Source: a virus (lineage: Duplodnaviria > Heunggongvirae > Uroviricota > Caudoviricetes). From it: a stretch of DNA of 64,000 nt. Under the pieces are notes generated by a model. That model was not told where the DNA came from. It worked only from the letters and a program-made list of their open reading frames with translations, and ran no database searches. The stretch is taken from the IMG/VR virus record IMGVR_UViG_3300045988_147305. One strand, given 5' to 3'. The translations under genes and the position numbers were made by a program. Of this stretch, positions 13,953 through 26,653 are shown piece after piece. Numbering within the stretch: the first letter of the stretch is position 1; each line of letters opens with the position of its first letter.

Positions 13953-14626
13953 TGGCACCCACAATTTATCACCGTATCGACGGTACCAAATACAGGAATG
14001 TCTGGGTTGTTGGTGATCTGCATGGTTGCTACACCAGACTGATGTCCGAACTCCATCGTGTGGATTTTGACCCGGCGCAGGATTTACTGATATCGGTCGG
14101 CGACCTTATCGATCGCGGTACTGAAAATGTCGAATGTCTGGAACTATTGCAGATGCCCTGGTTCAGGGCAGTGATGGGGAACCATGAGCGGCTGATGATT
14201 GATGCGTTAAGTCCAGATGGCAACGTGAATAACTGGCTAATGAATGGCGGACAATGGTTCTTCATGCTGGACACTGATCAGGAAATATTAGCCTGGGCGC
14301 TGGTGGAGCTGGTAAAGCGTCTGCCCTATATCATTGAGTTGAACACCGGGCAAGAAACTATCGTTATAGCCCATGCCGACTATCCGGATAATGAATACCA
14401 ATTCGGTAAGGAGGTGCCGCTTTTCAACGTTGTCTGGGCGCGCGAGCGTATCAGTGATTCGATGGATGATATTGGTGGCGAAATTTCGGGCGCAGATCGT
14501 TTTATCTTTGGTCACACTCCGGTGAAAAGCCCGAAGACATTCTGGAATCAGCAGTATATCGACACTGGTGCCGTATTTTGCGGAAACCTGACATTGATGA
14601 AAGTGAAAGGTGATGGTGCAGCATGA
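13949..14626 (+). CDS. ppp: lambda-type Ser/Thr protein phosphatase (calcineurin-like metallophosphoesterase)
   Basis: GDLHGCY, GDLIDRG and GNHE motifs; N-terminus parallels lambda PPase ([17 protein letters not shown]). Confidence 0.85.
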
Positions 14627-15324
14627 AGATTGCTTTAGTTTTTCGCTCTGGTGGTGACTATAACGCTTCCGATGTGCAGTGGCTGGTTAATCAACTGCCA
14701 AAAGACTATGAAATTATTTGCCTGACAGACCTGAAGTGTTTACATGTACCTGGCGTCAAAGTTATCCCATTGATCAACCAGTGGCAAAAGTGCCGTGGCT
14801 GGTGGGCGAAAATCGAGTTGTTCCGACCGGATATAACCGATGATCTGTTCTATCTGGATTTGGACACGGTTATTGCCGGTGATATACGCCCAATCCTAGA
14901 GCATCCACCAACCAGCTTCACCATGCTTAGGGATTTTTACCATCCACAATATCGTGGCAGCGGTGCCCTGTGGATACCAAATAGTGTTAAAGCGCATATC
15001 TGGAGTTCATTCTGGCAAGATCCGGAAGGTTGGATTTCTCGTTGTGTCACTACTGAGTGCTGGGGTGACCAGGGGTTCTTACGAAAGGTTATGGGCGATG
15101 ATACACCAGCATTTCAGGATCTGTATCCAGGATGGTTTGTAAGTTACAAGGCCGATGTTGTGGAACCTGGTTCAAAATATGCGAGCGCGCGTTACTCCAG
15201 GGGGAATGGGACATTACCAAAAGACTGCCGAATAATCTTTTTCCACGGCAAACCGCGACCTCGCGAAGTGTCAGAGGATTGGCTTCCCCTTATCAGCTCA
15301 TTTTTTGAGCGAGAATCAGAATAA
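14623..15324 (+). CDS. putative GT-A fold glycosyltransferase, 233 aa
   Basis: ATGA-coupled start; N-terminal Rossmann-like [13 protein letters not shown] and a DxD motif ([11 protein letters not shown]). Confidence 0.45.
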
Positions 15325-15325
15325 T

Positions 15326-15391
15326 ATTGCTCTAATAATTCCATATTTTTAAAACGTGATGTACACTCATCACGTTTTTTATTAGAGCAAT
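15326..15391. promoter_or_regulatory. two inverted C1-operator-like sites (15326-15342, 15375-15391) flanking a terminator hairpin (15351-15380)
   Basis: ATTGCTCTAATAATTCC and reverse-complement ATTGCTCTAATAAAAAA; hairpin AAAACGTGATG-tacact-CATCACGTTTT. Confidence 0.6.
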
Positions 15392-15405
15392 CTACAAGGT
15401 GCACT

Positions 15406-15624
15406 ATGTGGCCATTCCGACGGAAATATCACTACTGGCTGATCGCCTTTGTTACGCCGACCGGCGGTATCAGGCATGTCATCACCAGGTATCGCAACAA
15501 GAGACTCACCTTAGCCAGAATTTTACAGGCTGCCATAGGTGAGGGACTGGATACAAATTGCGTAGTCCTTCCTCCTTCATACTTAGGAAAAATGACCGAA
15601 GCACAAGCTAATACGGAACTTTGA
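15406..15624 (+). CDS. hypothetical protein, 72 aa
   Basis: ORF with RBS-like AAGGTG; its stop abuts the next start. Confidence 0.35.
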   Translation: MWPFRRKYHYWLIAFVTPTGGIRHVITRYRNKRLTLARILQAAIGEGLDTNCVVLPPSYLGKMTEAQANTEL

Positions 15625-15625
15625 A

Positions 15626-16888
15626 ATGAGCACTTCAGCACAAAACCAATCAATCGAAAATGTATGTATCCCTGATGTCCTGAATGCCGGTATCCCGGCC
15701 ATTATCCAGAACATCCGGGCCGCGCAACGCCGCGTTAGTTGTGATGACCTCACAGCACGTTTTTTTGATAATGCGGTTCAGTCAGCGGAGATGCTTCACG
15801 CACAGCTTATTGATGTTTATAACGCAGAAGCTGATAGCCATAACTCCCTGGTAGATGCAGCTGAAAATATGCAGTTGGATCTCGGTCTGAAGGGTAAAGA
15901 AATTGAAGAGCTTCAGCTGGAAATTGAACATTTGAAACGCCAGCAACAGGACGCGATCGACGATGCGACGCATGACGCCAACCAGCGTGCTGATAATGCC
16001 GAACGTATAAGCATTGAGCTGGAAACAAAACTCAATGAAATGACCGCGATGGTTGAACTGCGGAACTCACAGATTTCAACGCTAAAATCTCAATATAAAG
16101 AGATCATGAAACTTGATCCTTTTAACCTTGAGAAACGCTATAACAAAGCTAAAAGCGAGCGACAGGAACTGCGTAAGCAGGTCGCCGACCTTAACCAACA
16201 GCTCAAAAAAACTATTAAAGATGCAAGCGAGGCGCGCGTGGCATTTGCTAATAAAAAAGCAGAGGTTACCGCGCTGGTTAATGAGAATGCCAAATTTGCG
16301 ACGCTCAAGAAGGAAATGTATGGCATTACTGAGCGCCGTTTCCCTGCAAGCAAACTTCATCCGACGTTAGGGCAAATCTCCTTCTTCCCGCGCCTCCTGG
16401 CTTATGGGATCTCATCGCCTAAAGAGTTCAATAACGAGCGTCCTTATATCGTTTCTAAGCTGGACTTTGCTTATCAGTTCTGCTGCGACATGGGCTATGC
16501 CATTGATATCCGAATCAACGAATGGTTGATGCCAAACTTCCAGCCGTTGGCAATTTTCCGCGAGTTCCAGCCGGAAGGTTGGGTAGAGTTCTTCCATGAA
16601 TTGATCTGTAAAGAGATGGAAAGCCGTCGCCCGGAATTGGTCCGTCGAGTTGAGTGGGCGCAAGAGGTTATGTTGGCAGATGCAGAGCTGCCGTTCGAAC
16701 CGGAATTCATTGATGATCTGGCAACTAAAGGGCTGCATACCCTGTTTGATGTGGTTACCCGCCGTCATGAGCAGTTGGTTGTCGAATTGGGTTTAGAGGA
16801 AACTGCGGCAAGAAGACTTCTCGATGTTTGCTATGCACGTAGCGATGCATGGGAAAAAGAGAACGGCGGCACTATTTACGTTCGCTGA
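15626..16888 (+). CDS. coiled-coil protein, 420 aa, unknown function
   Basis: Long heptad-rich region in residues ~70-230. Confidence 0.5.
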   Translation: MSTSAQNQSIENVCIPDVLNAGIPAIIQNIRAAQRRVSCDDLTARFFDNAVQSAEMLHAQLIDVYNAEADSHNSLVDAAENMQLDLGLKGKEIEELQLEIEHLKRQQQDAIDDATHDANQRADNAERISIELETKLNEMTAMVELRNSQISTLKSQYKEIMKLDPFNLEKRYNKAKSERQELRKQVADLNQQLKKTIKDASEARVAFANKKAEVTALVNENAKFATLKKEMYGITERRFPASKLHPTLGQISFFPRLLAYGISSPKEFNNERPYIVSKLDFAYQFCCDMGYAIDIRINEWLMPNFQPLAIFREFQPEGWVEFFHELICKEMESRRPELVRRVEWAQEVMLADAELPFEPEFIDDLATKGLHTLFDVVTRRHEQLVVELGLEETAARRLLDVCYARSDAWEKENGGTIYVR

Positions 16889-16910
16889 TAGTTACAGTGT
16901 CACTTTTAAT

Positions 16911-16941
16911 GCTGGTGGAGTGCTCCCACCAGCATTTTTTT
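16911..16941 (+). terminator. Rho-independent terminator
   Basis: Hairpin GCTGGTGG-agtgctc-CCACCAGC followed by ATTTTTTT. Confidence 0.65.
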
Positions 16942-16960
16942 CGTCCAATGAGGAGGGCAT

Positions 16961-17467
16961 TTGAGTATTTTCAATAAACACGCACACCAGGAACGTCCGT
17001 ACATCGTCATAGTAGATATTGATGGGACGATATCAGAGGCAACGGAAGACAGGCTGCATTTACTTCCACCACCTGGCAAAGGTGCATTAACAGAGCACTG
17101 GAACGAGTTTAACCTTGCCTGTGACACTGATGCTCCCATCACTCCAGTTATTGATATGGTGCGCCAGTTGTCCGGCATTTACACCCTCTGGTTTGTAACC
17201 GGGCGCTGTGAGATAGCCAGGGATAAAACACGAGCCTGGTTGCGTAAGCACGTAACAAATGGGGCGGAGCCTTTGCTATCTATGCGTCCTGCCACCGATG
17301 ACAGAAATGACGGTCCAGCAAAGATTGATCTCCTGAAGAAAATTGGTCTAAGTAAAATTGCGTTCGCGCTGGAAGATAAGATTGAAGTGGCGCGTGTTTT
17401 CAGGAGTCACGGCGTACTTACGTTAATGGTCAGGGAGTATGAAAACGCGCTTCTCCATCAACAATAA
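16961..17467 (+). CDS. HAD-superfamily phosphatase, 168 aa (PNK-phosphatase-like)
   Basis: HAD motif I DIDGT, motif II FVTGR; TTG start with RBS GGAGGG. Confidence 0.65.
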   Translation: MSIFNKHAHQERPYIVIVDIDGTISEATEDRLHLLPPPGKGALTEHWNEFNLACDTDAPITPVIDMVRQLSGIYTLWFVTGRCEIARDKTRAWLRKHVTNGAEPLLSMRPATDDRNDGPAKIDLLKKIGLSKIAFALEDKIEVARVFRSHGVLTLMVREYENALLHQQ

Positions 17468-17483
17468 TTGCTCTAATAAATCT
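17467..17483 (+). promoter_or_regulatory. C1 operator (ATTGCTCTAATAAATCT)
   Basis: 15/17 match to operator consensus; upstream of the 17.5-25.6 kb gene block. Confidence 0.6.
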
Positions 17484-17565
17484 TGATTTTTAAAACAGAG
17501 AAAGTGAAAATAAAAACATGCCGTAAGGCGCGGCATGTATCCAATCAATCACAGGAGCTGAAAAT

Positions 17566-17652
17566 ATGAACACGGCATTCAAAATCATTATGGCCGCGAT
17601 CTATTTCTGGCTGTTCTCTATCACTTTTGGCGGCATCGTCGCACATGGGTAA
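17566..17652 (+). CDS. 28-aa hydrophobic peptide (MNTAFKIIMAAIYFWLFSITFGGIVAHG)
   Basis: ATG with RBS AGGAG 8 nt upstream; single predicted TM helix; below the 60-aa ORF-track cutoff, found by hand. Confidence 0.4.
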   Translation: MNTAFKIIMAAIYFWLFSITFGGIVAHG

Positions 17653-17661
17653 GGGGGATGC

Positions 17662-18369
17662 ATGAAAGGCGAAGTGAAAGAGCGCGGCATGATTTTCAAC
17701 GATGAGATGGTCCGGGCCATCCTCGAAGGAAGGAAAACGCAGACGCGGCGGATAATGAAAAATCAGCCTGCGGAAGTTGGTCCAGAAGCACCAGTGATGG
17801 TTAGAAAAATTGGTGCAGGTTTTCAGTGGTACGGGGCTGATGGTGTAAGCAGTGTTTTCAATTGCCCATTTGGTATCGTCGGCGATCGAATTTGGGTTCG
17901 TGAAACATGGGCGATATTAGGCAATGAGGATGGTTGCAGTGTGGACTGGAACGACAACCTTTGTCGTGGCGATGAGAAGAACGCAGCAAGGATTTATCGG
18001 GCCAGTTGCGAGCAAAAACCTGGTGATTACGGCTTATGGTCGATACCCGATGATGCCGACTGGAAACCTCACACTGTGAATGAAAAGTTTGATGGTGGGT
18101 GGCGTCCATCAATTCACATGCCGCGATGGGCATCACGCATTCTGTTGGAAATTACCAACGTGCGCGTTGAACGGTTGAACGATATCAGCGAATGCGATGC
18201 AAGGGCTGAGGGCGTTCCGCCTGCTGGAAGTTTGCTTCCTGATCACCCGGGAACATTCCTTACTCCCAAGGGGGATTTCGCAATGGCCAAGGTTGCGTTC
18301 CAGCGCCTGTGGGAATCCATCTATGGTGAAGAAAGCTGGAACGCTAATCCCTGGGTGTGGGTACCGTGA
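17662..18369 (+). CDS. ASCH/PUA-like domain protein, 235 aa
   Basis: N-terminal IFNDEMVRAILEGRKTQTRR motif typical of phage ASCH-like proteins; RBS AGGGGG. Confidence 0.5.
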   Translation: MKGEVKERGMIFNDEMVRAILEGRKTQTRRIMKNQPAEVGPEAPVMVRKIGAGFQWYGADGVSSVFNCPFGIVGDRIWVRETWAILGNEDGCSVDWNDNLCRGDEKNAARIYRASCEQKPGDYGLWSIPDDADWKPHTVNEKFDGGWRPSIHMPRWASRILLEITNVRVERLNDISECDARAEGVPPAGSLLPDHPGTFLTPKGDFAMAKVAFQRLWESIYGEESWNANPWVWVP

Positions 18370-18531
18370 TCACCAAAGATGGCCCGAAGGTAAAAAAACT
18401 GCACCAAACAGAGCGGATGTGGGTCGTTGGCAAAAACGAGTTTTACCACAAAGAAACTGGACGCCGCCATTTTGCAGAAAATACGCGCCGCCGACTGCTG
18501 TTAGACACCATCAAGCCTATCGAGGTGAAGC

Positions 18532-18771
18532 ATGTTTAAACAGAACGAAAAAGCTATCGCTCAAATTGCTGATTATATCCCGCGTGCGTGCCGGGGTATG
18601 CAGTTGCAGGAAGCCAAAGCGCGCCTGGAGAAAAAAATTGCGCTCTATATTGATGACGGCTGTGATTCCGCCGTTCTTAACGCGGCGTTCGCACCAGCTC
18701 TTAACTGTCACACTCGGGAGTCTTTTTTTTCGTGCATCGCAGCGCAACTCCGCCAAGGAGGCAACCAGTGA
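18532..18771 (+). CDS. hypothetical protein, 79 aa; C-terminal tail LRQGGNQ shared with the Ea22-like protein at 19409
   Basis: ATG with RBS GAGGTG. Confidence 0.45.
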   Translation: MFKQNEKAIAQIADYIPRACRGMQLQEAKARLEKKIALYIDDGCDSAVLNAAFAPALNCHTRESFFSCIAAQLRQGGNQ

Positions 18772-19412
18772 GTAACCGTTTTTACATGATGTGCTTGCGT
18801 GAAACTGTGGGTAATAACGCCTCATTCCATTGCCATAACGGCAATGGTTACAGTTCTGATATCGATCGCGCTCATGTTTACACGCTGGAAGAAGCCCAAA
18901 AAGCCTGGAATTGTGGGCGAGATATCGATCAGCCTGTTTGTGCCGATAGTGTGGATGCAATGGCTGTGTGGCACGTTGATTGCCAGTACATCCCTACAGA
19001 AAGCCTGATTGAGTCAGATTGCACTGCGTATGTGGCCTACAAAAAAGGTAGCTGGAACGGCAACGATGTTTACTGGCTTCAACACGGTGGATTGCCAACA
19101 GATGACTTCAGTAAAGCGACCATCTTTAGCGTCGCCAACAAAAACGAACCAGGAATAGTTTGGTTGCCATTTTCCATTGCTGATGCAGCAAAGCGCCGGA
19201 CGTTCAATATCAATAAATTTAACCGCAGAACAATGGTTCAGGGCGCAGGTTTGGTCATGCCTGACTGGTTGAAAAAGCAGAACAGAAGAAAGAAGTCGCG
19301 AAGCGGGAAGGTGCGTTGGAATTGTCCGCATTGCGGAAAAATCACCTGGCAGTACAGCCCATATGATTTTGAAGGCTGTCGTGATTACAACTGTGAAGGA
19401 TGGCGAGAATGA
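18768..19412 (+). CDS. Cys-rich hypothetical protein, ~214 aa
   Basis: GTG start overlapping upstream stop (GGAGGCAACCAGTGA); C-terminal CxxC...CxxC. Confidence 0.45.
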   Translation: MSNRFYMMCLRETVGNNASFHCHNGNGYSSDIDRAHVYTLEEAQKAWNCGRDIDQPVCADSVDAMAVWHVDCQYIPTESLIESDCTAYVAYKKGSWNGNDVYWLQHGGLPTDDFSKATIFSVANKNEPGIVWLPFSIADAAKRRTFNINKFNRRTMVQGAGLVMPDWLKKQNRRKKSRSGKVRWNCPHCGKITWQYSPYDFEGCRDYNCEGWRE

Positions 19413-20131
19413 CAATTGACTATCAGGTACTGCGTGAGGCGGCAGAAAAGGCAACACCAGACGAATGGGTCGCATTTATTTCGCCGGGTACTGGTACATA
19501 TGCGGTGCATACACCCGGTGATAAACGATGTGGAGACGTTATCAAATGGCCCGGCTTTGATGGACAGGAAAACGCAGAGAATAACGCTCGTTATGTTGCC
19601 GCGTTCAACCCAAAGGTTGCACTGGAGCTGCTTGGTGAAATTAAGCGCCTGGAGGACACAAATATTGATGCTATGTGTCGAATTGCAGAGCTTGAGACTA
19701 ATCTCGCGGCGCTGGTGGCGGAGAATGCGGGGCTTAAGGCCTTCAAAACCGCCGTTTATCAGCAGATGGGCGTCGGATGTGATGCTCCTGAATTCTCCAT
19801 TACGGTAGGTTTGAGTAACTTACGTCGTTTTGCTGACACACTCCACGCCATTGAGCGTGAGTTCTTTACCAAAGAGCTACCTGATGAAGAGCACGAAGGC
19901 GAAACATTCAATGAATGTCCACTTAGCTGGGGAATGAGCGTCGAACAGTACGTTTCCGAGTTTCGCAAATGCCTGGCTGAAGTGCGGGCGCAGGGATTGG
20001 AGATGTTTGCACAGAAATGTAACTCAAAATCCGAACAGTCATTTGCATCTGATATACGCGATAACTGGAAACTACTCGGTGAACATGCCACTGACTTTGC
20101 CGCAGAGCTTCGAAAAGGAGGCAACCAGTGA
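19409..20131 (+). CDS. Ead/Ea22-like family protein (from memory), paralog A
   Basis: N-terminal IDYQVLREAAEKATP...NARYVAAFNP..ALELLGEI plus coiled coil; ATGA coupling. Confidence 0.45.
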   Translation: MTIDYQVLREAAEKATPDEWVAFISPGTGTYAVHTPGDKRCGDVIKWPGFDGQENAENNARYVAAFNPKVALELLGEIKRLEDTNIDAMCRIAELETNLAALVAENAGLKAFKTAVYQQMGVGCDAPEFSITVGLSNLRRFADTLHAIEREFFTKELPDEEHEGETFNECPLSWGMSVEQYVSEFRKCLAEVRAQGLEMFAQKCNSKSEQSFASDIRDNWKLLGEHATDFAAELRKGGNQ

Positions 20132-20880
20132 GCAAGATTGACTATCAGGCACTGCGTGAGGCGGCAGAGCGTGCAATTCCGGCAATGGAACGCCTGTTAA
20201 TGTTGCCAGTTGATGATGATCTGATAAGTGAACAGGAACTTAAAGATTACGGCGTGGATATTGATGCGCTCAACGCCTTCAAATTTCTGACCGGACCAGA
20301 AACCGTGCTGGCGCTGCTGGATGAACGGGAAAGAAACCAGCAATACATAAAACGCCGCGATCAGGAGAACGAGGATATTGCGCTAACGGTAGGGAAGCTG
20401 AGAGTTGAGCTTGAGGAAGTAAAACAACACGCTGAAGAATTATCCGAAACCAAGGCTGTTCGTAACCAATGGCGGCCAGATATTTGCCCAATAACCGGAC
20501 GTGCATTTTTCATGTGGATTGAGCATCCAACATTGGGAAATGTGCCGACATATGGTGGCCCATTAGATAGTTACACCATTCCAACAAAGGACGGTGACGG
20601 TGAGTTTTCATGTGAGCGTTACGATCATGATTTTGGCGGTTGGGTAGAAAGCGAATGTCTTGGGGTATATCTGATTGATGATAGAGAACAATGCAGGGTC
20701 TACGAACTGGAGGAACGCGTTAAGGAACTGGATGCTCGGGAAATATCGCTCCCGGAACGTAGCAGCATGCTTCATCGAACAGATTTTCACGATGATTACC
20801 AAACGGTAATGGCATACAAAGTTTCTGAAGTCATCGCTGCAATCCGCGCCGCAGGCATTCGCATCAAAGGAGGTGAGTAA
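20128..20880 (+). CDS. Ead/Ea22-like family protein, paralog B
   Basis: N-terminal IDYQALREAAERA...; GTG start in repeated junction AAGGAGGCAACCAGTGAG. Confidence 0.45.
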   Translation: MSKIDYQALREAAERAIPAMERLLMLPVDDDLISEQELKDYGVDIDALNAFKFLTGPETVLALLDERERNQQYIKRRDQENEDIALTVGKLRVELEEVKQHAEELSETKAVRNQWRPDICPITGRAFFMWIEHPTLGNVPTYGGPLDSYTIPTKDGDGEFSCERYDHDFGGWVESECLGVYLIDDREQCRVYELEERVKELDAREISLPERSSMLHRTDFHDDYQTVMAYKVSEVIAAIRAAGIRIKGGE

Positions 20881-21056
20881 TGCGTGTGGCATGTATCGGC
20901 TTGTTACCGTACCCGACTCGTTTTTGGGCTTCTGCGCTAATTGCGAAGCCGTATGTCCTGATGGCTGACAACATCATCCCGGCACCAAAGCGCCGCCATA
21001 CCGGTATTGCAGCGGCACGACGAGCAGCAAAGAGACGCAGGAGAGCAAAGCGATGA
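20880..21056 (+). CDS. 58-aa Arg/Lys-rich small protein
   Basis: ATG overlapping upstream stop (TAATG); C-terminal RRAAKRRRRAKR; below the ORF-track cutoff. Confidence 0.3.
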   Translation: MRVACIGLLPYPTRFWASALIAKPYVLMADNIIPAPKRRHTGIAAARRAAKRRRRAKR

Positions 21057-21226
21057 AAAACCGTAAGGCAAAACGACTTTTTTTTACAGCGACCTGTGCG
21101 TGTGGTGGAGCTGGTTATTAGCAACCATAAGATAGCGGTACTCCATCCATTTGGTCAGGTGGCTTTTGCCGCAAAGCGTAAGCCTACTGCGTCACAGAAC
21201 AGGCGGAAGAAAGGGTACGCTGTAAG

Positions 21227-21415
21227 ATGAAAAACCGTAAAGCAAAGATTCTGTTAGTTCGTAGAAACGCTCCTGGCGTCTGGCAGTGGGTGAGACTCAG
21301 CAACCGACGGATGGGGTTGATGAAATATTACGGGATGATGGATTGTGGTTTTTGCAAAAAGCCCAGCGCGGCGCAAAACCGCTGGAAAAACCACTTGCGC
21401 ACTAAAGGAGAGTGA
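21227..21415 (+). CDS. 62-aa small protein starting MKNRKAK; a truncated 22-codon duplicate lies at 21053-21121
   Basis: Direct repeat ATGAAAAACCGTAA(G/A)GCAAA at 21053 and 21227. Confidence 0.35.
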   Translation: MKNRKAKILLVRRNAPGVWQWVRLSNRRMGLMKYYGMMDCGFCKKPSAAQNRWKNHLRTKGE

Positions 21416-21416
21416 T

Positions 21417-21932
21417 ATGGCGTTAACACACCGCGAACTCTGTCAGATTGCGTACAAGTTCCTTAAGCGCAACGGGTTCAAGGTTTGTTTTCATGACCGC
21501 TTTATAGCTGTAACCAGTACCGGAGAACAGCCAGATGCTATGGGATTCAGAAATTCAGCATCATGCCTGATAGAGGCGAAGTGTTCTCGTGCTGACTTGT
21601 TGGCAGATAGAAAAAAGCGTTTTCGTAAAAATCCGTCTCTTGGAATGGGCGACTGGCGATTCTTTATTAGTGAGCCGGGAATTATTTCAATTGAGGATTT
21701 ACCACCTGGCTGGGGATTACTTCACGTTGTTAACGGAAGAGTACGGAAAGTACATGGGTGGCCCAAGGGTAATTGCTGTTGGGGTAATCCTGACGATAAG
21801 CCATTTACTGGAAATAAGCAGGTTGAATGCGATTACATGTTATCTGCATTAAGGCGCATGGAGTTGAGAGGGCACCTTAATGAAATATATGACGGTGTAA
21901 TTGTTAATAAGAAAGAAGGAAACGCGGCATGA
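21417..21932 (+). CDS. hypothetical protein with PD-(D/E)XK-like motif, ~171 aa
   Basis: RBS AAAGGAG before ATG 21417; QPDAMGF...LIEAK fits D...ExK. Confidence 0.4.
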   Translation: MALTHRELCQIAYKFLKRNGFKVCFHDRFIAVTSTGEQPDAMGFRNSASCLIEAKCSRADLLADRKKRFRKNPSLGMGDWRFFISEPGIISIEDLPPGWGLLHVVNGRVRKVHGWPKGNCCWGNPDDKPFTGNKQVECDYMLSALRRMELRGHLNEIYDGVIVNKKEGNAA

Positions 21933-22393
21933 CCACTATTACCAATAAGAAACAGTATCCCAGCGAGCAATATCTTAATGAGCTGATCACCAACATAGAG
22001 TTTGCCGCAAGGGCACCAGTTGAAGTCGTGAGAGCAATGGCAGCAGAGCTACAGAAGCGGCGCGAAGCTGATAGTGCAGAACCAGTTGCTTATATTTTCA
22101 AACATCCGGCCGGGAAATTATTCTGGGCTTTAACGGATGAAAGCAATAAAGAGCAAGCGGACGTTATTCCTGTTTATGCTGCCGCGCCTGCGTCGGTTGT
22201 GCCGGATAATGCATCAGAGCCTCTTGCTTATGCTTACAAAGAGCTTACGCCTGAGATTATGCGCAACCATTTAGCTGTATTCGAGCGATATGGAATAGCC
22301 CCAAACGATAGCACTACCACAATTCAGGCACTGCGAATCGCGCTGGATGGTATAGAGCGGAGCGACGCCATGCTTCAGGGTAAAGGAGGGTGA
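21929..22393 (+). CDS. hypothetical protein, 154 aa
   Basis: ATGA-coupled ORF. Confidence 0.4.
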   Translation: MTTITNKKQYPSEQYLNELITNIEFAARAPVEVVRAMAAELQKRREADSAEPVAYIFKHPAGKLFWALTDESNKEQADVIPVYAAAPASVVPDNASEPLAYAYKELTPEIMRNHLAVFERYGIAPNDSTTTIQALRIALDGIERSDAMLQGKGG

Positions 22394-22394
22394 T

Positions 22395-22604
22395 ATGGCT
22401 ATTGCCGCAAGTTACACAATGCATCTCTATTGTGATTGCCTCCAGTGTACAGATGGCAAATATAAGTCGCCAGACTTCGGTGAGTATATCGGTACGTCAT
22501 GGTCTGGTTGTGCAAAAGAGGCCCGTAAAGACGGGTGGCGAATAAGCGCCGACAAAACACGTGCTTTTGCGCCCGGGCATAAAGTTTTGAGGATTAACAA
22601 ATGA
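22395..22604 (+). CDS. Cys-rich small protein, 69 aa
   Basis: CDCLQC motif; coupled to flanking ORFs. Confidence 0.35.
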   Translation: MAIAASYTMHLYCDCLQCTDGKYKSPDFGEYIGTSWSGCAKEARKDGWRISADKTRAFAPGHKVLRINK

Positions 22605-23209
22605 CCACTATTACCAGAGAACAAACTCTGAAAATTATTGAGGCAGCCGATGAGGTTATTAGTGCGCTTGCCGGAACTAACGAGGATGTTCACCCTGGTA
22701 GCGATAACATGCTACGCCTGTGGGATGACCTGAATGACCGTTACGCGCCCCCGGAAGTAGTGCGTGAGCTGGCACGAATTGTGCTGGCATCGCTGGAAGC
22801 CGAACCTGTAAGCCAAACTTACAACTTGCCAGAATTAATCGAGGGCATGGAAGTTTCCATTGATGTAAGCACTTGTGATGCTGATTTAGGTAATCGCTAT
22901 TTCGGCACCGTCACCGAGGCGTCAGAACTTGATACTGCCAAGAATGGTTACATCCTCCTGGTTCAGGACGCAGAGCCAAACTTCGATGTAAATGGCAACT
23001 CTCCGGTAACTCCGGATAGTTGGATAAGCTGTAGTGAGCGAATGCCCGCTCAAGATGATTGGATTTTAATTTATTCAAAGCACGGCGAGTATATGGCAGG
23101 CCAGGTGCAAGGGGAATACGTGGAGTTGAGCGACGGCACTTTATCGTGGTTAGGGAACGCCTTGTTCTGGATGCCGCTACCAGAACCGCCGCAGGAGGTG
23201 AATCAATGA
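22601..23209 (+). CDS. hypothetical protein with DUF551-like C-terminus, 202 aa
   Basis: C-terminal W.S.SERMP...W...MPLPEPP pattern. Confidence 0.4.
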   Translation: MTTITREQTLKIIEAADEVISALAGTNEDVHPGSDNMLRLWDDLNDRYAPPEVVRELARIVLASLEAEPVSQTYNLPELIEGMEVSIDVSTCDADLGNRYFGTVTEASELDTAKNGYILLVQDAEPNFDVNGNSPVTPDSWISCSERMPAQDDWILIYSKHGEYMAGQVQGEYVELSDGTLSWLGNALFWMPLPEPPQEVNQ

Positions 23210-23273
23210 GCTGGCCTGAAGCATTCACCACGGTAGGAATTGTGATGGCGGCAGCACTGGGTTTGTATTCAAT

Positions 23274-23525
23274 TTGTCGCTGGTGGTAACGATGGGAAAA
23301 ATAACTTTTGTAGTCGAATTTGAGGATGGCAAAGAGCCACCTGTTAGCGCCAATCTTGATGTTGCTGGTGGCAGGCTTGTTTCGGTTCTATTTGGTGACT
23401 ACCGAGATGACTTCTTCCAACCAGAAGAAGTTGATGTAGTGCGAGAGGCATTAAACGAGTTAAGTGTTGATAACGATGATGCTCATGCGGAAATCATCCA
23501 AAAAATGGAACTGCTAACTCACTAA
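23274..23525 (+). CDS. acidic hypothetical protein, 83 aa
   Basis: ORF only. Confidence 0.35.
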   Translation: MSLVVTMGKITFVVEFEDGKEPPVSANLDVAGGRLVSVLFGDYRDDFFQPEEVDVVREALNELSVDNDDAHAEIIQKMELLTH

Positions 23526-23573
23526 ATTATCAATTATGGTGCTATCACCTACGACACCGAGAGAAAATTTATA

Positions 23574-23696
23574 ATGTCAAAAGTAAATGTTTTGATTTTT
23601 TCAGCAATTGTTGGCTTTGGTTTTACTGCCGGAGTGCAGATTTATATTACGTGGGAAAAAATCATCAACTACGCATGGAGTTGTTTTATTAAGTGA
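23574..23696 (+). CDS. 40-aa hydrophobic peptide (MSKVNVLIFSAIVGFGFTAGVQIYITWEKIINYAWSCFIK)
   Basis: Single predicted TM helix; next gene's RBS GAGGTAAG follows immediately; found by hand. Confidence 0.35.
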   Translation: MSKVNVLIFSAIVGFGFTAGVQIYITWEKIINYAWSCFIK

Positions 23697-23703
23697 GGTA
23701 AGT

Positions 23704-23997
23704 ATGTGGAGAGGTAATAGTCATGGCAAAAGCCAGATGATACTTACCGAATATCAGTTTGACCATAAAACCAATAAATCACGTTCAGTATATTTGCTTC
23801 GGCACAATAGCCGCGTAATGAATACCGTGCTGGAGCAAAATCTGACTGTTGAAATAGATAGTTACGGGGGCTTCAAGCCAACAATTTCGCTTGATGATTT
23901 TCCTCGTGGTTTAAGCGAAAGAGAAGCAATGCTGAAATTAGCAGAATGGCTACAAAGATTAAGCATTGCTATTGAAGATAACTGGTCTGAACCTTAA
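23704..23997 (+). CDS. hypothetical protein, ~97 aa
   Basis: ATG 23704 with RBS GAGGTAAG, in frame within track ORF 23608..23997. Confidence 0.4.
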   Translation: MWRGNSHGKSQMILTEYQFDHKTNKSRSVYLLRHNSRVMNTVLEQNLTVEIDSYGGFKPTISLDDFPRGLSEREAMLKLAEWLQRLSIAIEDNWSEP

Positions 23998-24003
23998 ATT
24001 TAT

Positions 24004-24378
24004 ATGATGACACTAAAACATTTTCTTGACCGCCCATTATGGGCGGCAGCCGCAGGCTATGACTTTAATTATATGGATTGCATGTCTTATACCGCCAATG
24101 CATACGACTATTCCTTCAGTCTGCTGCTTAATTCTTTAAGAATATTGCCGCAAACAGAAGTTGGAGAGCTTCATTTATGGCTATTGGGCTTTATCGCGGC
24201 TGGAGTTGGTATTGCTGTATGGCCTTTTATTTTCTGGCTGGTGGCTGTTGTAGTGTGGTTTAAGTGCAAGACGTACCGGAGAAAGTATTTCTTAGGTGAT
24301 GGAATGACTGATATTGCCAAAATGAACATTGAAAAATGGACTAAGGAATGTGAAAAGAAATGGCGCAAAAAGAAATGA
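24004..24378 (+). CDS. membrane protein, 124 aa
   Basis: Hydrophobic stretch LWLLGFIAAGVGIAVWPFIFWLVAVVVWF; Lys-rich C-terminus. Confidence 0.45.
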   Translation: MMTLKHFLDRPLWAAAAGYDFNYMDCMSYTANAYDYSFSLLLNSLRILPQTEVGELHLWLLGFIAAGVGIAVWPFIFWLVAVVVWFKCKTYRRKYFLGDGMTDIAKMNIEKWTKECEKKWRKKK

Positions 24379-25268
24379 CCAGAATCACTGAAGAGCGTAT
24401 ATCAGAGATTATTTCCCGTATCGAAATGTATGGTCACGGTGCTGGATATACGGCAGATGAAGTATTGGCACTTGCCCAAATGGCTTTGGCGGCTTGCAAA
24501 GATGATAAAAAAATGAAGTTTATCGACTTGTTAGTGAAGGAACTGCCTAAGTGCGGCGGGTGGCCTGATGGAATGAGTTATTGTTACCTACCCAGTGTCA
24601 ATTTAATGGCACCATGCGCGACTTTTGCTTTTGGCTCAGACCACAAAAAAGACACTTTCTTTGGGCGCAATTTTTGTTGTGAGATTGAGCTTCCAATTGG
24701 TGACCTTGATAGCGATGAATACCAGTCAGTTGTCACTCGCGAACAATACGAATCAGCTCTCATAGCGTCGCAGAAAGTCGAGTTCAATGGTGATGAACTT
24801 GAAAGTAAGACTTACAGGTTGGATTTTGGGCAATGGCTGGAACAGCAACGCGGGAAAATCGATGTGGACTGTGGTTGTGTGTCCACTGAAACATTCATGC
24901 ACTGGCTGCGGGTAGCTTACGAGGCTGGCAACTATCCGGATATTCCGGATAGTTCGGTGCCAGCACCAGGAAAGGGCGTCACCGGTGAACGTATCCGAAT
25001 TAAGCCGCATGTTTATCGCGAACTGGTTAACCGTCTCCACGATACAGCGATCAAGTGTGCTGGCACCCAGCAATTACGAGAAAGAATTAGCCGTGTTTTG
25101 GGCGACGTTATTACACCAGATCATCATAAACAAGCCGAGAAAAGCGGTCTGGAAAGGAGTCATCTTGAAGCGGCATTAAACATTAAACCGGGGCATACGC
25201 TAGGTGTCATTGATGCCATGTTGGTTCATGAAATGGCTAAGGCGTTATTGCCACTGGAGGCTGATTAA
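24360..25268 (+). CDS. hypothetical protein, 302 aa
   Basis: ORF only. Confidence 0.45.
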   Translation: MAQKEMTRITEERISEIISRIEMYGHGAGYTADEVLALAQMALAACKDDKKMKFIDLLVKELPKCGGWPDGMSYCYLPSVNLMAPCATFAFGSDHKKDTFFGRNFCCEIELPIGDLDSDEYQSVVTREQYESALIASQKVEFNGDELESKTYRLDFGQWLEQQRGKIDVDCGCVSTETFMHWLRVAYEAGNYPDIPDSSVPAPGKGVTGERIRIKPHVYRELVNRLHDTAIKCAGTQQLRERISRVLGDVITPDHHKQAEKSGLERSHLEAALNIKPGHTLGVIDAMLVHEMAKALLPLEAD

Positions 25269-25331
25269 ATTCCGGATAAAGCTGATATCTGATCACCATG
25301 CTAAAATCCCCTCAATTCACAGAGGGGATTT

Positions 25332-25604
25332 TTGTATATGTTGCGTAGATTTTTAGGTAAAAGCGTTATTGTCGGTGCGATGTTGGCTATGTCTGGGTGT
25401 GCTATGGTGCAATACAATGACGGAGAAAAGGTTAGCATCCAGTCAGATGGTTGGTATGGCCTGGATAGCCTGCAAAAAACAGCGGATAAAGCCTGCCAGC
25501 AATACGGAAAGTCTAAAGCCGTATATCAGCATAGCGCGAACGCTAACCCTCATCTTGCGCCCGGTTCGGGTGTTCAGAATACCATCTGGAAATGTGAGCC
25601 TTAA
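25332..25604 (+). CDS. small lipoprotein, ~90 aa
   Basis: Signal peptide ending in lipobox-like AMSGC. Confidence 0.45.
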
Positions 25605-25606
25605 AC

Positions 25607-25855
25607 ATGAGCGACTGGAATATTGCAGCCAAAAGTCAGGAAGAACGGGATAAGGTTAACGTAGATCTGGCTGCCAGCGGTGTGGCGTACAAAGAGCGAT
25701 TGAACATACCAGTCATAGCGGAACAGGTGGCCAGGGAACAACCTGAGCACTTGCGTGCATGTTTCATGGAAAGACTACGTTATTACCGCGAGCAGAGCGT
25801 GAAACTACCAAAAGGAAGTGATCCGGTATATCAAAAGGCAGATCCACAAAAATAA
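25607..25855 (+). CDS. hot: homolog of DNA polymerase III theta subunit (HolE)
   Basis: [35 protein letters not shown] closely parallels E. coli HolE. Confidence 0.8.
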
Positions 25856-25930
25856 GCCTTTTCAATAAGCTATATCACCACCAGCTAAAAAATACATTCT
25901 GACTTGCATGAAATGCGCCCTTTAGCGATA

Positions 25931-25950
25931 TACTGTATATAAACACAGTA
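25931..25950 (+). promoter_or_regulatory. LexA box (SOS operator) upstream of humD
   Basis: TACTGTATATAAACACAGTA = CTGT-N8-ACAG palindrome; RBS AGGAGGG follows. Confidence 0.8.
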
Positions 25951-25966
25951 TTTAGGAGGGCGTATA

Positions 25967-26359
25967 ATGGGATTCCCATCACCAGCAGCCGATTTTGCTG
26001 AAAGCAGAATTTCGCTTGACGCACAATTCATCAAACGACCAACCGCAACATATTTCATGCGGGCCGCCTGCTCACATCTCCGTGAGGGGATTTTGCAAGG
26101 TGCAATGCTGGTGGTTGATTCATCTCTTCCACCACTGGATGGTTCTCTACTCATATGTGCCGTAGAGGGAGAATTTCGCGTAAAGCGATACCGCAAGCAT
26201 CCTCGCCCACACCTTGAGGATCTGGAAAGCGGAAGACGTGAGTCACTGCCAGATGATGATGACAGCAGCTATTCCGGGAGTCAGGCCATATTCGGGGTAA
26301 TCACATACATCATTAACGATGCCAGGAGTGGGGAATTTGATGATTGCCCGGTGATTTAA
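25967..26359 (+). CDS. humD: UmuD-like SOS mutagenesis protein
   Basis: LexA/UmuD-type S24 peptidase fold, 130 aa, immediately downstream of a LexA box. Confidence 0.8.
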   Translation: MGFPSPAADFAESRISLDAQFIKRPTATYFMRAACSHLREGILQGAMLVVDSSLPPLDGSLLICAVEGEFRVKRYRKHPRPHLEDLESGRRESLPDDDDSSYSGSQAIFGVITYIINDARSGEFDDCPVI

Positions 26360-26431
26360 GCTGCAAAGAGCTGGTGCTTTATGCTTGTGAAGTTTATACT
26401 TGTGTACACATAACGAGTACACGAGGTGTTT

Positions 26432-26653
26432 ATGCAATCCATTAACTTCCGTACCGCGCGTGGCAACCTTTCTGAAGTGCTCAACAATGTTGAAGCCGGG
26501 GAAGAGGTTGAAATCACCCGCAGAGGCCGTGAGCCAGCAGTAATTGTCAGCAAGGCTACTTTCGAAGCCTACAAAAAAGCGGCGCTGGATGCTGAATTTG
26601 CATCCCTGTTTGACACCCTGGACTCCACCAACAAGGAACTGGTTAACCGATAA
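26432..26653 (+). CDS. phd: Phd antitoxin (prevent host death)
   Basis: [40 protein letters not shown] matches P1 Phd as recalled; 73 aa from ATG 26432. Confidence 0.9.

Follow-up and report, generated by a model that had tools for sequence, protein, structure and literature searches.

Layout of the block and its operator

In the window, the 64,000-nucleotide stretch of DNA that was analysed, 8.1 kb between pap (end at 17467) and hot (start at 25607) harbour 20 co-directional ORFs, 19 of them intact and one frameshifted, with all features of the block on the + strand. An earlier note on this DNA had described a dense run of about 17 small genes; the dense run is found again, but the count has to be corrected to 20 ORFs in 17566–25604, the frameshifted p09 included. 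Of the 19 gene junctions between p02 and hot, 11 are overlaps of 1–13 nt, five are gaps of 1–7 nt and three are gaps of 48–82 nt. With the exception of the 28-aa peptide p01, which showed no PHROG match, each ORF matches a PHROG family with an E value between 1e-14 and 1e-123, identifying them as real, recurrent phage genes. In a Pfam search, a domain was absent in 17 of the 20 block proteins.

The block follows a C1 repressor operator at 17467–17483 (+ strand, ATTGCTCTAATAAATCT) that matches the annotated P1 operator OpmgT, formerly Op88, at every position. It deviates from the C1 consensus at one position, and two predicted sigma-70 promoters, P2pmgT and P1pmgT (17468–17511), overlap with it. 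The window contains 14 C1-operator-like sites (0.2 expected by chance), and between 15375 and 28290 this is the only one. A single C1 operator implies an operon that is repressed in the lysogen. The operator identity and the mostly overlapping ORFs thus bear out the co-directional, coupled gene run downstream of a C1 operator that had been noted before.

Genes of the block

The left-hand part begins with p01 (17566–17652), a conserved hydrophobic leader peptide of 28 aa (hydropathy 2.1) with an AGGAG Shine-Dalgarno sequence, which is kept in P1, P7 and pR15_MCR-1. The next gene, p02 (17662–18369), encodes a 235-aa PmgT-core protein (phrog_874) and is 98.7% identical at the nucleotide level to codons 1–231 of P1 pmgT. 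An ASCH-like protein had been proposed in the earlier note. The p02 relatives comprise 51,239 clusters (50% identity, E≤0.001). Among 55 diverse relatives, ASCH is the sole Pfam family encountered, matched by 11 of them with a best E value of 1.3e-4, but p02 itself has no Pfam match; a divergent ASCH-like identity is therefore only weakly suggested. Three further genes follow: p03 (18357–18539), a 60-aa basic protein with uncertain start codon (phrog_1226, E 2e-36) that RefSeq annotates in the near-identical record pCRKP-59-KPC; p04 (18532–18771), a 79-aa protein (phrog_1344, E 3e-52); and p05 (18768–19412), a Cys-rich 214-aa homolog of P7 Upf87.6 (phrog_2457, E 5e-119; 98% nucleotide identity to P7) with ten Cys and a C-terminal CxxC...C..C motif.

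In the middle of the block, p06 (19409–20131, 240 aa) and p07 (20128–20880, 250 aa, very acidic with a net charge of −21) match the Pfam family Ead/Ea22 (PF13935) with E values of 8e-20 and 3e-29, respectively, in agreement with the two Ea22-like paralogs assigned earlier. They are followed by a very basic 58-aa protein, p08 (20880–21056; phrog_13831, E 1e-41), and by two paralogs, the frameshifted p09 (21053–21230), the 3' part of which matches phrog_1380, and the basic 62-aa protein p10 (21227–21415; phrog_1380, E 1e-40). RCS47, a chromosomal prophage and a further plasmid locus have an intact 58-aa ORF as the counterpart of p09. As p09 carries a T8 run where the relatives have T7, a pseudogene or a sequencing error is the probable explanation.

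The 171-aa product of p11 (21417–21932) is predicted to be a PD-(D/E)XK protein with an MmcB-like nuclease fold. Its nearest relatives, MmcB-like proteins and SPO1766 (PDB 3dnx), have the alpha-beta-beta-beta-alpha-beta core and the motif D...E-x-K-S-R-x-D in common with p11, which differs from them by an extra C-terminal region. No significant sequence match was obtained for p11 in Pfam (negative at E 0.01) or with PDB profiles (E value 0.24). In Salmonella, fusions of the p11-type domain with an Ea22 N-terminus occur in some cases. The 154-aa protein p12 (21929–22393; phrog_6847 and phrog_60) shares an N-terminal MTTIT... module with p14 according to alignment (repeat D8). Between them lies p13 (22395–22604), a 69-aa protein with four Cys (phrog_926, E 7e-36). 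The very acidic p14 (22601–23209, 202 aa, net charge −26) was confirmed as the DUF551-like protein expected from the earlier note (PF04448, E 2.6e-10).

With p15 (23292–23525), an acidic 77-aa protein (phrog_3876, GC 0.42), an AT-rich right-hand part begins that is common to many natural P1-like plasmids, several of which carry the identical RefSeq protein WP_000516537.1. It continues with the hydrophobic 40-aa peptide p16 (23574–23696; phrog_5525, E 1e-24; hydropathy 1.83), the 97-aa protein p17 (23704–23997; phrog_1258) and the 124-aa membrane protein p18 (24004–24378; phrog_2638), whose hydropathy reaches 2.38 around residues 68–86. For both hydrophobic peptides and for p18 these values are consistent with the earlier description. 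The 297-aa product of p19 (24375–25268) combines a variable N-terminus with a conserved PmgU-like C-terminal domain; the match to phrog_21459 comprises residues 188–301 of a 302-aa ORF starting at 24360.

Downstream of p19, a terminator-like hairpin at 25298–25337 (repeat I11) has a stem of 11 bp with a T run after it, and the Shine-Dalgarno sequence of p20 lies within the 3' arm of this hairpin. This last gene (25338–25604; phrog_7757) encodes an 88-aa predicted lipoprotein, an assignment backed by the invariant lipobox G-C across the family, in which two further Cys are conserved. It adjoins hot in more than 150 plasmids and is coupled to it here by a 2-nt gap. The right flank is formed by hot (25607–25855, + strand; NF008207 of NCBIfam, E 2e-30), a divergent allele of the DNA polymerase III theta homolog with 83.6% nucleotide identity to P1 hot, and by humD (25967–26359) downstream of a LexA box at 25931–25950 (+ strand, TACTGTATATAAACACAGTA). 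The P1 gene lxr is absent from the window at hot-humD.

Comparison with P1, P1-like phage-plasmids and lambdoid prophages

The corresponding P1 interval comprises six genes (pmgT, pmgU, pmgV, upfM, upfN and upfO) in 2.27 kb compared to 8.1 kb here, in agreement with the far lower gene number given for P1 in the earlier note, and P1 covers 21% of window positions 17000–26000. A one-to-one correspondence to pmgT-upfO, named there as the outcome that would refute its reading, was not seen on alignment. Both loci have the same flanking genes, with pmgS and pap to the left and hot, humD and phd-doc to the right, and an identical Op88 operator and leader, whereas P1 carries pmgV-upfO at the place of the lipoprotein gene p20 and contains lxr. 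The 6.56 kb of the window that are absent from P1 (18357–24916) fall on one point inside pmgT, window positions 14500–18356 and 24917–25263 being contiguous in P1. P1 PmgT consists of p02 residues 1–231 and 78 aa from an out-of-frame reading of p19-like DNA, while PmgU is the C-terminus of p19 in frame (24917–25263, 90.8% identical to P1).

The earlier note had suggested that part of the block may be accessory cargo. On a corresponding reading, foreign cargo would have been inserted recently into an ancestral short interval of the P1 type. The single position of the extra DNA relative to P1 and the near identity of its middle to lambdoid prophage DNA fit this reading, but it is very unlikely in view of the P1 side of the joint, which is the aberrant one: PmgT lacks the C-terminal WVWV(I)EF strand that is conserved in its family and runs on out of frame, and PmgU is a p19 truncated at its N-terminus. 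Furthermore, the P1-type junction was found in only five of 138 plasmid records matching either half, compared to 655 P1-like plasmid records with pap, and DNA of the right-hand genes missing from P1 (p15–p18) is widespread, with p17–p18 DNA in 310 plasmid records. The accessory nature of the genes is retained, and the insertion into a P1-type backbone is not. The short arrangement of P1 appears to be a rare deletion or fusion derivative; as a recombination joint would yield the same P1 sequence, the deletion reading rests on parsimony. Reference P1 would then be a deletion remnant, with pmgT and pmgU as products of fusion or truncation. The last ~6–10 residues of the family consensus are missing from p02, indicating that it ends at a recombination joint as well.

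Versions of the interval with 6–10 kb occur in P7, RCS47 and many natural P1-like plasmids. The P7 hea operon (upf86.8 to upf91.7) and its RCS47 equivalent are long versions behind the same operator and share p05, parts of the Ea22 genes, p11, p13, the DUF551 end, p17–p18 and the p19 C-terminus with the block. In contrast to the block, they show another order and content of cassettes and cover 34–38% of window positions 17000–26000, and P7 additionally has IS903 at the right-hand end. A type I R-M system takes the place of the entire interval in pR15_MCR-1; homology to the window stops directly after the p01 stop codon and restarts at phd-doc. Type IC hsd loci with P1 DNA on either side, of which pR15_MCR-1 is an example, were reportedly described by Tyndall et al. 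(1997; cited in PMC12707154), and the P1 record gives the same flanks for EcoDXXI and R124/3. In the same replaceable slot, such hsd elements carry a genuine defence system, which is encoded on the opposite strand, whereas the block contains no R-M or other recognised defence genes. The block is the documented hypervariable region of P1-like phage-plasmids and as such no unusual cargo; the variability of the interval has been published as region 8 (PMC9603915) and as a region of difference (PMC6906374).

Window positions 18752–22381 are 94–98% identical to an Stx2c phage and to a chromosomal prophage of O145:H28, where this DNA is located between kil/erf/abc and xis/int, that is, in the exo-xis (ea) region. 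Parts of 18700–23300 were found in 3300 of 5426 E. coli genomes, chiefly in the chromosome, and p02 (PmgT) homologs occur in the exo-xis region of Klebsiella prophages between exo/recT/Dam and DUF1382-TraR-xis-int. Similar to the block, the lambdoid regions (lambda orf60a-orf63-orf61-ea22-ea8.5, Stx phage 24B, P22 ea genes) are repressor-controlled early operons of small, overlapping and dispensable genes with Ead/Ea22 and DUF551 proteins, the N-terminal domains of which are conserved and the C-terminal ones variable. They differ from it in being driven by pL with N antitermination and in lying next to int/xis or recombination genes, whereas the block uses a C1-controlled P1 promoter on a plasmid prophage.

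This relationship also bears on the historical pmg names, according to which the genes would be morphogenetic. Such a role is hardly credible: it is backed by the P1 annotation names only, from which RCS47 and some UniRef entries copied the label 'morphogenetic protein', but the homologs occur in early-left operons of lambdoid siphoviruses and podoviruses with unrelated virions, and pR15_MCR-1 carries the R-M system in place of the interval. Moreover, pmgT, pmgU and pmgV proved non-essential in CRISPRi and deletion surveys, with non-essentiality reported in P1 and lambda (PMC10695390).

Proposed role and diversification of the operon

We consider it probable (roughly 0.8) that the block represents the early accessory operon, under C1 repression, of a P1-like (IncY) phage-plasmid, that it is the counterpart of the P1 pmgT and P7 hea operons, and that it is present here in the long form found in nature. 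A conserved left frame (operator Op88, leader p01 and the PmgT-core gene p02) and a conserved right frame (p15–p18 and the PmgU-like end of p19) would enclose small genes of the lambdoid exo-xis (ea) early-left kind, arranged as a shuffled array. In the lysogen the operon would be kept off by C1, and upon infection or induction one transcript would run from the Op88 promoters through the tightly coupled genes, ending probably at the hairpin 25298–25337 or continuing into p20-hot; early timing and transcript extent we infer solely from the operator and the gene coupling, as opposed to the anatomy, homology, mosaicism and P1 junction, which the sequence comparisons show. The products would be dispensable for plaque formation and most likely tune early host-phage physiology. 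Candidate roles are a bias between lysis and lysogeny as shown for lambda Ea22, whose mosaicism and prolysogenic role are published, and DNA metabolism or repair, in which the p11 nuclease and hot would take part; counter-defence is a further possibility.

The earlier note had also suggested anti-defence or superinfection exclusion. Nothing pointing specifically to either was found: the 20 block proteins gave no PADLOC match to defence HMMs and no Pfam match to anti-restriction families, and the NCBIfam search was empty as well. That some early genes form a counter-defence island inhibiting host anti-phage systems can be entertained tentatively. The acidic p06, p07, p14 and p15 might serve as decoys or mimics, while the p11 nuclease might target DNA or signalling molecules of the host. 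An apparently early, repressor-controlled operon, its extreme variability with rapid cassette exchange and the strong acidity of several products are in accordance with this, as is the presence of a PAPS-reductase-family protein, a dATP/dGTP pyrophosphohydrolase and a methyltransferase in the slot of relatives. DUF551 is also found on a phage dATP/dGTP pyrophosphohydrolase described as an inhibitor of host restriction enzymes (PMC10834534). However, acidity is common among early phage proteins, no block protein matched a known anti-restriction Pfam family, and the lambda homologs studied to date act on the lysis-lysogeny balance, not on defence.

Lysogenic conversion or superinfection exclusion, with p16, p18 and p20 made in the lysogen and blocking incoming phage or DNA, is less probable and must be regarded as unlikely. 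These products do resemble a transmembrane peptide, a membrane protein and a lipoprotein, this part of the block is AT-rich, the hairpin sets p20-hot apart from the upstream genes, and some relatives hold a true defence system (type I R-M) in the slot. Yet PADLOC was negative, similarity of block proteins to known exclusion lipoproteins was not detected, and no promoter-like site was found on the + strand of the p15–p20 part (23210–25338), the sole operator-controlled promoter being located upstream. The repression in the lysogen implied by the single C1 operator speaks against a role in exclusion for the greater part of the operon.

For the accessory operon, diversification would proceed through homologous recombination with lambdoid prophages residing in the same host, with short sequences conserved at gene junctions and in domain linkers as the putative exchange points. 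Homology endpoints lie within 25 nt of a gene boundary in 20 of 46 cases compared to 6.7 expected, a number reached in none of 10,000 simulations. The repeats D1, D2, D5, D6 and D8 are positioned at gene junctions or gene starts, and repeat D3 is an intragenic linker adjoining the P1 junction.

Flanks, operator and gene inventory of the block

On sequence grounds the window is assigned to a P1-like phage-plasmid. The block is flanked on the left by the P1 backbone genes ppp, pmgQ, pmgR, pmgS and pap and on the right by hot, humD, phd-doc and pdcB. With pmgS-pap on one side and hot-humD-phd-doc on the other, in the same orientation as in P1, it occupies the pap-hot variable interval. Directly after pap, the 17-mer ATTGCTCTAATAAATCT (17467-17483) is identical, with no mismatch, to the annotated P1 operator OpmgT (formerly Op88), overlaps both sigma-70 promoters predicted in the P1 record and is the sole C1-operator-like site between 15375 and 28290. 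Over the window 14 such sites (1268-47976) were found compared to 0.2 by chance, as would be expected if the P1-type immunity circuit is intact. The closest record to 17000-26000 is the Klebsiella pneumoniae plasmid pCRKP-59-KPC (NZ_KX928752.1; IncY and IncF replicons), differing over this range by two homopolymer indels and one substitution. At ~18265, ~20921 and ~21328 the window has an extra C, an extra T and a T/A substitution, respectively; p02, p08 and p10 are intact in the window, whereas they are broken in pCRKP-59-KPC and absent from its protein table.

Behind the operator 20 ORFs were counted (p01-p20, 17566-25604), all on the + strand. Among the 19 junctions from p02 to hot, 11 overlap by 1-13 nt, five leave gaps of 1-7 nt and three leave gaps of 48-82 nt. 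PHROG matches were obtained for all ORFs except the 28-aa p01, every matched family being of unknown function. These findings confirm that the block is real. ORF calls together with PHROG and Pfam matches bear out the inventory of the earlier note, a co-directional run behind a C1 operator, in its essentials. The dense run stands, whereas the count of about 17 genes has to be corrected to 20, one of which (p09) is frameshifted. The two Ea22-like proteins and the DUF551 protein named there were recovered by Pfam, with matches above gathering scores for p06 and p07 (Ead_Ea22, PF13935) as well as p14 (DUF551, PF04448). An NCBIfam scan of all ORFs gave no name for any block gene and recognised only hot and HumD. 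Hydrophobic products are p01, p16 and p18, strongly acidic ones p14, p07, p06 and p15 (net charge -26, -21, -15 and -12); p08, p09 and p10 are short, highly basic products. On the minus strand, ORFs reach up to 153 aa but were dismissed, as they lie wholly within + strand genes.

In p09 (21053-21230) a T8 run at ~21078-21085 leads to a frameshift; the corresponding run is T7 in RCS47, a chromosomal prophage and another plasmid, all of which carry p09 as an intact 58-aa ORF paralogous to p10. The frameshift could represent a real pseudogene or a sequencing error. Between p19 and p20 a strong hairpin followed by a T run is located at 25298-25337, the 3' arm of which includes the p20 Shine-Dalgarno sequence GAGGGG; it could serve as a terminator and/or control p20-hot at the level of translation. 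With Rfam (E<=0.1), no match was obtained in 16800-26500. No site in the window fits a pattern built from the P1 late promoter LPhot, a result that is uninformative. The earlier note had also proposed a comparison of GC content with the neighbouring backbone. With 0.47-0.51 the block resembles its flanks and is not set apart from them; only 23250-24500 is AT-rich (0.37-0.42), and the idea that GC content marks the block as foreign was rejected.

Short P1 arrangement, long array and the lambdoid exo-xis region

In P1, 2.27 kb separate pap from hot and accommodate pmgT, pmgU, pmgV, upfM, upfN and upfO, compared to 8.1 kb in the window; the far smaller gene number given for P1 in the earlier note is thus correct. 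The first large gene, p02 (17662-18369), is homologous to PmgT (98.7% nucleotide identity) and the last array gene, p19 (24375-25268), has a PmgU-like end (90.8%), reading frames having been checked. In local BLAST, window 14500-18356 aligns to P1 with 98.7% identity, and the P1 bases that follow directly align to window 24917-25263 with 90.8%. As both segments are contiguous in P1, the extra 6.56 kb of the window correspond to a single point inside pmgT. P1 PmgT (309 aa) comprises p02 residues 1-231 and 78 residues read out of frame from the DNA of the p19 C-terminus, and P1 PmgU represents the in-frame C-terminal ~100 residues of p19. Members of the p02 family usually end with ...NPWVWVIEFKR at a length of 230-250 aa, and P1 PmgT breaks within this conserved end. 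The comparison identifies P1 pmgT as a putative fusion and pmgU as a putative truncation, left by a 6.5-kb deletion or a recombination joint.

With a 136-nt probe of the P1 junction, 138 plasmid records matched either half, but the complete junction was present in only five of these. The corresponding numbers of plasmid records are 655 for pap and 310 for p17-p18, and in an evenly spaced sample of plasmid matches spanning the interval its length was mostly 6.4-9.1 kb. Because the junction is that rare and long intervals are common, we regard the short P1 arrangement as a rare derived form, arisen by deletion or an illegitimate joint, and the long array as the usual natural state. The five junction records are natural isolates; the P1 form is thus no laboratory artefact. 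On the right side, pmgV-upfO of P1 (~1.05 kb) is replaced by the single lipoprotein gene p20 (25338-25604). The window carries a divergent hot allele with 83.6% identity to P1 hot, and lxr, in P1 a 573-bp gene on the minus strand separating hot from humD, is absent, ~110 bp being left at 25856-25966. Directly upstream of humD a perfect LexA box, TACTGTATATAAACACAGTA (25931-25950), overlaps a promoter-like site.

Homology breakpoints are significantly concentrated at gene junctions. Comparison with ten related loci yielded 46 distinct homology endpoints. For 20 of these a gene boundary is at most 25 nt away (6.7 expected), and in 10,000 random placements such a number was never reached. The longest internal direct repeats coincide with the breakpoint places. 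The repeat GGAGGCAACCAGTGA at the p04/p05 and p06/p07 junctions acts as Shine-Dalgarno sequence and start/stop overlap; further repeats are found at the gene starts in the pairs p06/p07, p09/p10 and p12/p14 as well as at the p10/p11 and p12/p13 junctions. A 29-nt linker repeat is found inside p14 and p19 and adjoins the right-hand P1 junction. Some relatives do not carry p09, which is missing exactly between the repeated p09 and p10 starts. In Salmonella, the p11 domain is also found fused to the Ea22 N-terminus. This fits the published modularity, according to which Ea22 joins exchangeable C-terminal domains to a conserved N-terminal coiled coil, and DUF551 is a portable domain (PMC10834534).

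Window 18752-22381 shares 94-98% identity with Stx2c-converting phages and with a chromosomal prophage of E. coli O145:H28 (L006). In this prophage the stretch is part of the early-left operon, after kil, erf and an anti-RecBCD gene and before xis and int, and the interval is the lambdoid exo-xis (ea) region. Of 5426 complete E. coli genomes, 3300 contain pieces of 18700-23300, located at 7251 sites on chromosomes and 723 on plasmids. In Klebsiella prophages (L013-L015) a p02 homolog with 74% identity has exo/recT/Dam on one side and, on the other, DUF1382 (the family of lambda orf63 in Pfam), a TraR-like gene, xis and int. The shared DNA and the placement of this homolog argue that the P1-like Op88 operon and the lambdoid exo-xis region draw on one common cassette pool, PmgT included. 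Similar to the lambdoid region, the block contains Ead/Ea22 genes and associated small genes (DUF551); in contrast, its control element is the P1 C1 operator with a predicted promoter and not lambda CI/pL.

Predicted nuclease, PmgT-core protein and lipoprotein

The best-supported functional assignment in the block is that of p11 (171 aa, 21417-21932), for which a PD-(D/E)XK nuclease fold is predicted. D40, E53 and K55 are invariant in 24 homologs (motif PD...LIEAKCSRxD). An AlphaFold model of moderate quality (pLDDT 69) exhibits an alpha-beta-beta-beta-alpha-beta core of restriction-endonuclease-like fold, with the catalytic motif at strands 41-45 and 48-54, in accordance with the PD-(D/E)XK-like protein listed in the earlier note. 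Its structural neighbours among viral proteins carry the names MmcB-like DNA repair protein and VRR-NUC. In the comparison of the sequence profile with the PDB, 3dnx_A ranked first and aligned over the catalytic segment, albeit with a non-significant E of 0.24. PDB sequence searches with p02, p05, p07 and p11 revealed no significant match, nor did PDB profile searches with the alignments A3 and A8, the latter being the deep p02 alignment.

The family of p02, the PmgT-core protein, comprises 51,239 clusters at 50% identity (E<=0.001) and is not represented by its own Pfam model. A variable insert lies between conserved N- and C-terminal halves (p02 and relatives P0306-P0455). The description as ASCH-like is weakly supported and below threshold: p02 itself does not match ASCH (PF04266, gathering score 21.2 bits) and its close homologs reach 12-16 bits, whereas 11 of 55 diverse relatives do match (best E 1.3e-4), ASCH being the sole Pfam family found among them. 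With a pLDDT of 48, the AlphaFold model from a shallow alignment is too poor for a fold reading (PUA-like beta-barrel). The lipoprotein p20 has a signal peptide lipobox, ...[LIV]x-G-C-A, with a Cys invariant in 12 aligned relatives, two further conserved cysteines and a varying N-terminal region. A tblastn search with p20 against the phage collection gave no match despite the existing PHROG family; p20 is common on plasmids instead.

Possible function and other occupants of the slot

The best-supported reading is that of a C1-repressed, dispensable early operon which would modulate early host-phage physiology. P1 genes from pmgT to humD score as non-essential, and likewise lambda ea22, ea8.5, orf61, orf63 and orf60a (PMC10695390). 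According to studies on lambda and Stx phages, exo-xis genes modulate the lysis-lysogeny decision, Ea22 being prolysogenic.

A counter-defence role for some block members is plausible. The slot is hypervariable and in relatives is filled by a methyltransferase, a dATP/dGTP pyrophosphohydrolase, a PAPS-reductase-family protein or, in certain elements, a restriction-modification (R-M) system. Direct evidence for such a role was not found. The scan with defence models proposed in the earlier note came out negative, PADLOC giving 0 matches at E<=0.01 among all 20 proteins. Pfam families of anti-restriction and anti-defence proteins include ArdA, KlcA/ArdB, Ocr, Ral and Gam; none of this kind was matched by the block proteins, for which Pfam returned only Ead_Ea22 and DUF551. 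Exclusion functions are conceivable for p16, p18 and p20, but would require promoter activity in the lysogen, and no such promoter was found for these genes. We consider it rather unlikely that the Op88 operon of natural P1-like phage-plasmids is an early counter-defence and host-takeover hotspot, built on the exo-xis cassette pool and lost by reference P1. If it were, the uncharacterised families would represent novel means of inhibiting or evading host immunity, with the PmgT-core ASCH-like family (>50,000 clusters), the MmcB-like p11 and the acidic Ea22/DUF551 proteins as candidates, and work on P1 would have missed them owing to the pmgT-pmgU deletion.

The label 'putative morphogenetic' appears misleading, because pmgT and pmgU would be a fusion and a truncation, and the natural locus a long array of exo-xis type. 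The block is a documented variable locus of known families with unknown function. The view of the earlier note that it is accessory and richer than P1 persists, but it is not a novel system; the importance is modest, as no new kind of system is involved. Small new points are the proposed pmgT/pmgU fusion and truncation, the probable sharing of a pool, including PmgT, with the exo-xis region and the concentration of breakpoints at gene junctions. The P1-like variable region is thereby joined to the lambdoid exo-xis region, both being large sets of unexplained phage genes, and the shared pool may point to where accessory functions of the clinically common P1-like plasmids might be found.

Variability of the locus has been described before. 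In JL22, pmgT is reported as 'replaced' by a gene cluster including an Ea22 gene and a methyltransferase (PMC9603915), and Venturini et al. list the area as a region of difference common to three elements (PMC6906374). Like the window, P7 has a long 'hea operon' annotated behind the same operator (Op88/OpmgT), and RCS47 carries another version of the Op88 interval. In pR15_MCR-1, homology to the window ends right after the p01 stop codon, and a type I hsdR-S-M system extends up to phd-doc. The notes in the P1 record on the flanks of EcoDXXI and R124/3 agree with this arrangement, as does Tyndall et al. 1997, so far as cited in PMC12707154, for a type I R-M system in the P1-flanked slot. Other P1-like plasmids carry in this slot a PAPS-reductase-family gene (L009, 2040-2912), a gene with a dATP/dGTP pyrophosphohydrolase domain (L010, 4161-4847) or a complete type I R-M system (L008, 11772-17771). 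The 84-bp p01-coding segment (17573-17656) recurs with 98.8% identity, unannotated, in many large IncF-type plasmids and, as noted in the P1 record, downstream of hsdR in R124/3 and EcoDXXI. The segment looks like a trace left by P1-derived DNA that moves together with type IC R-M loci.
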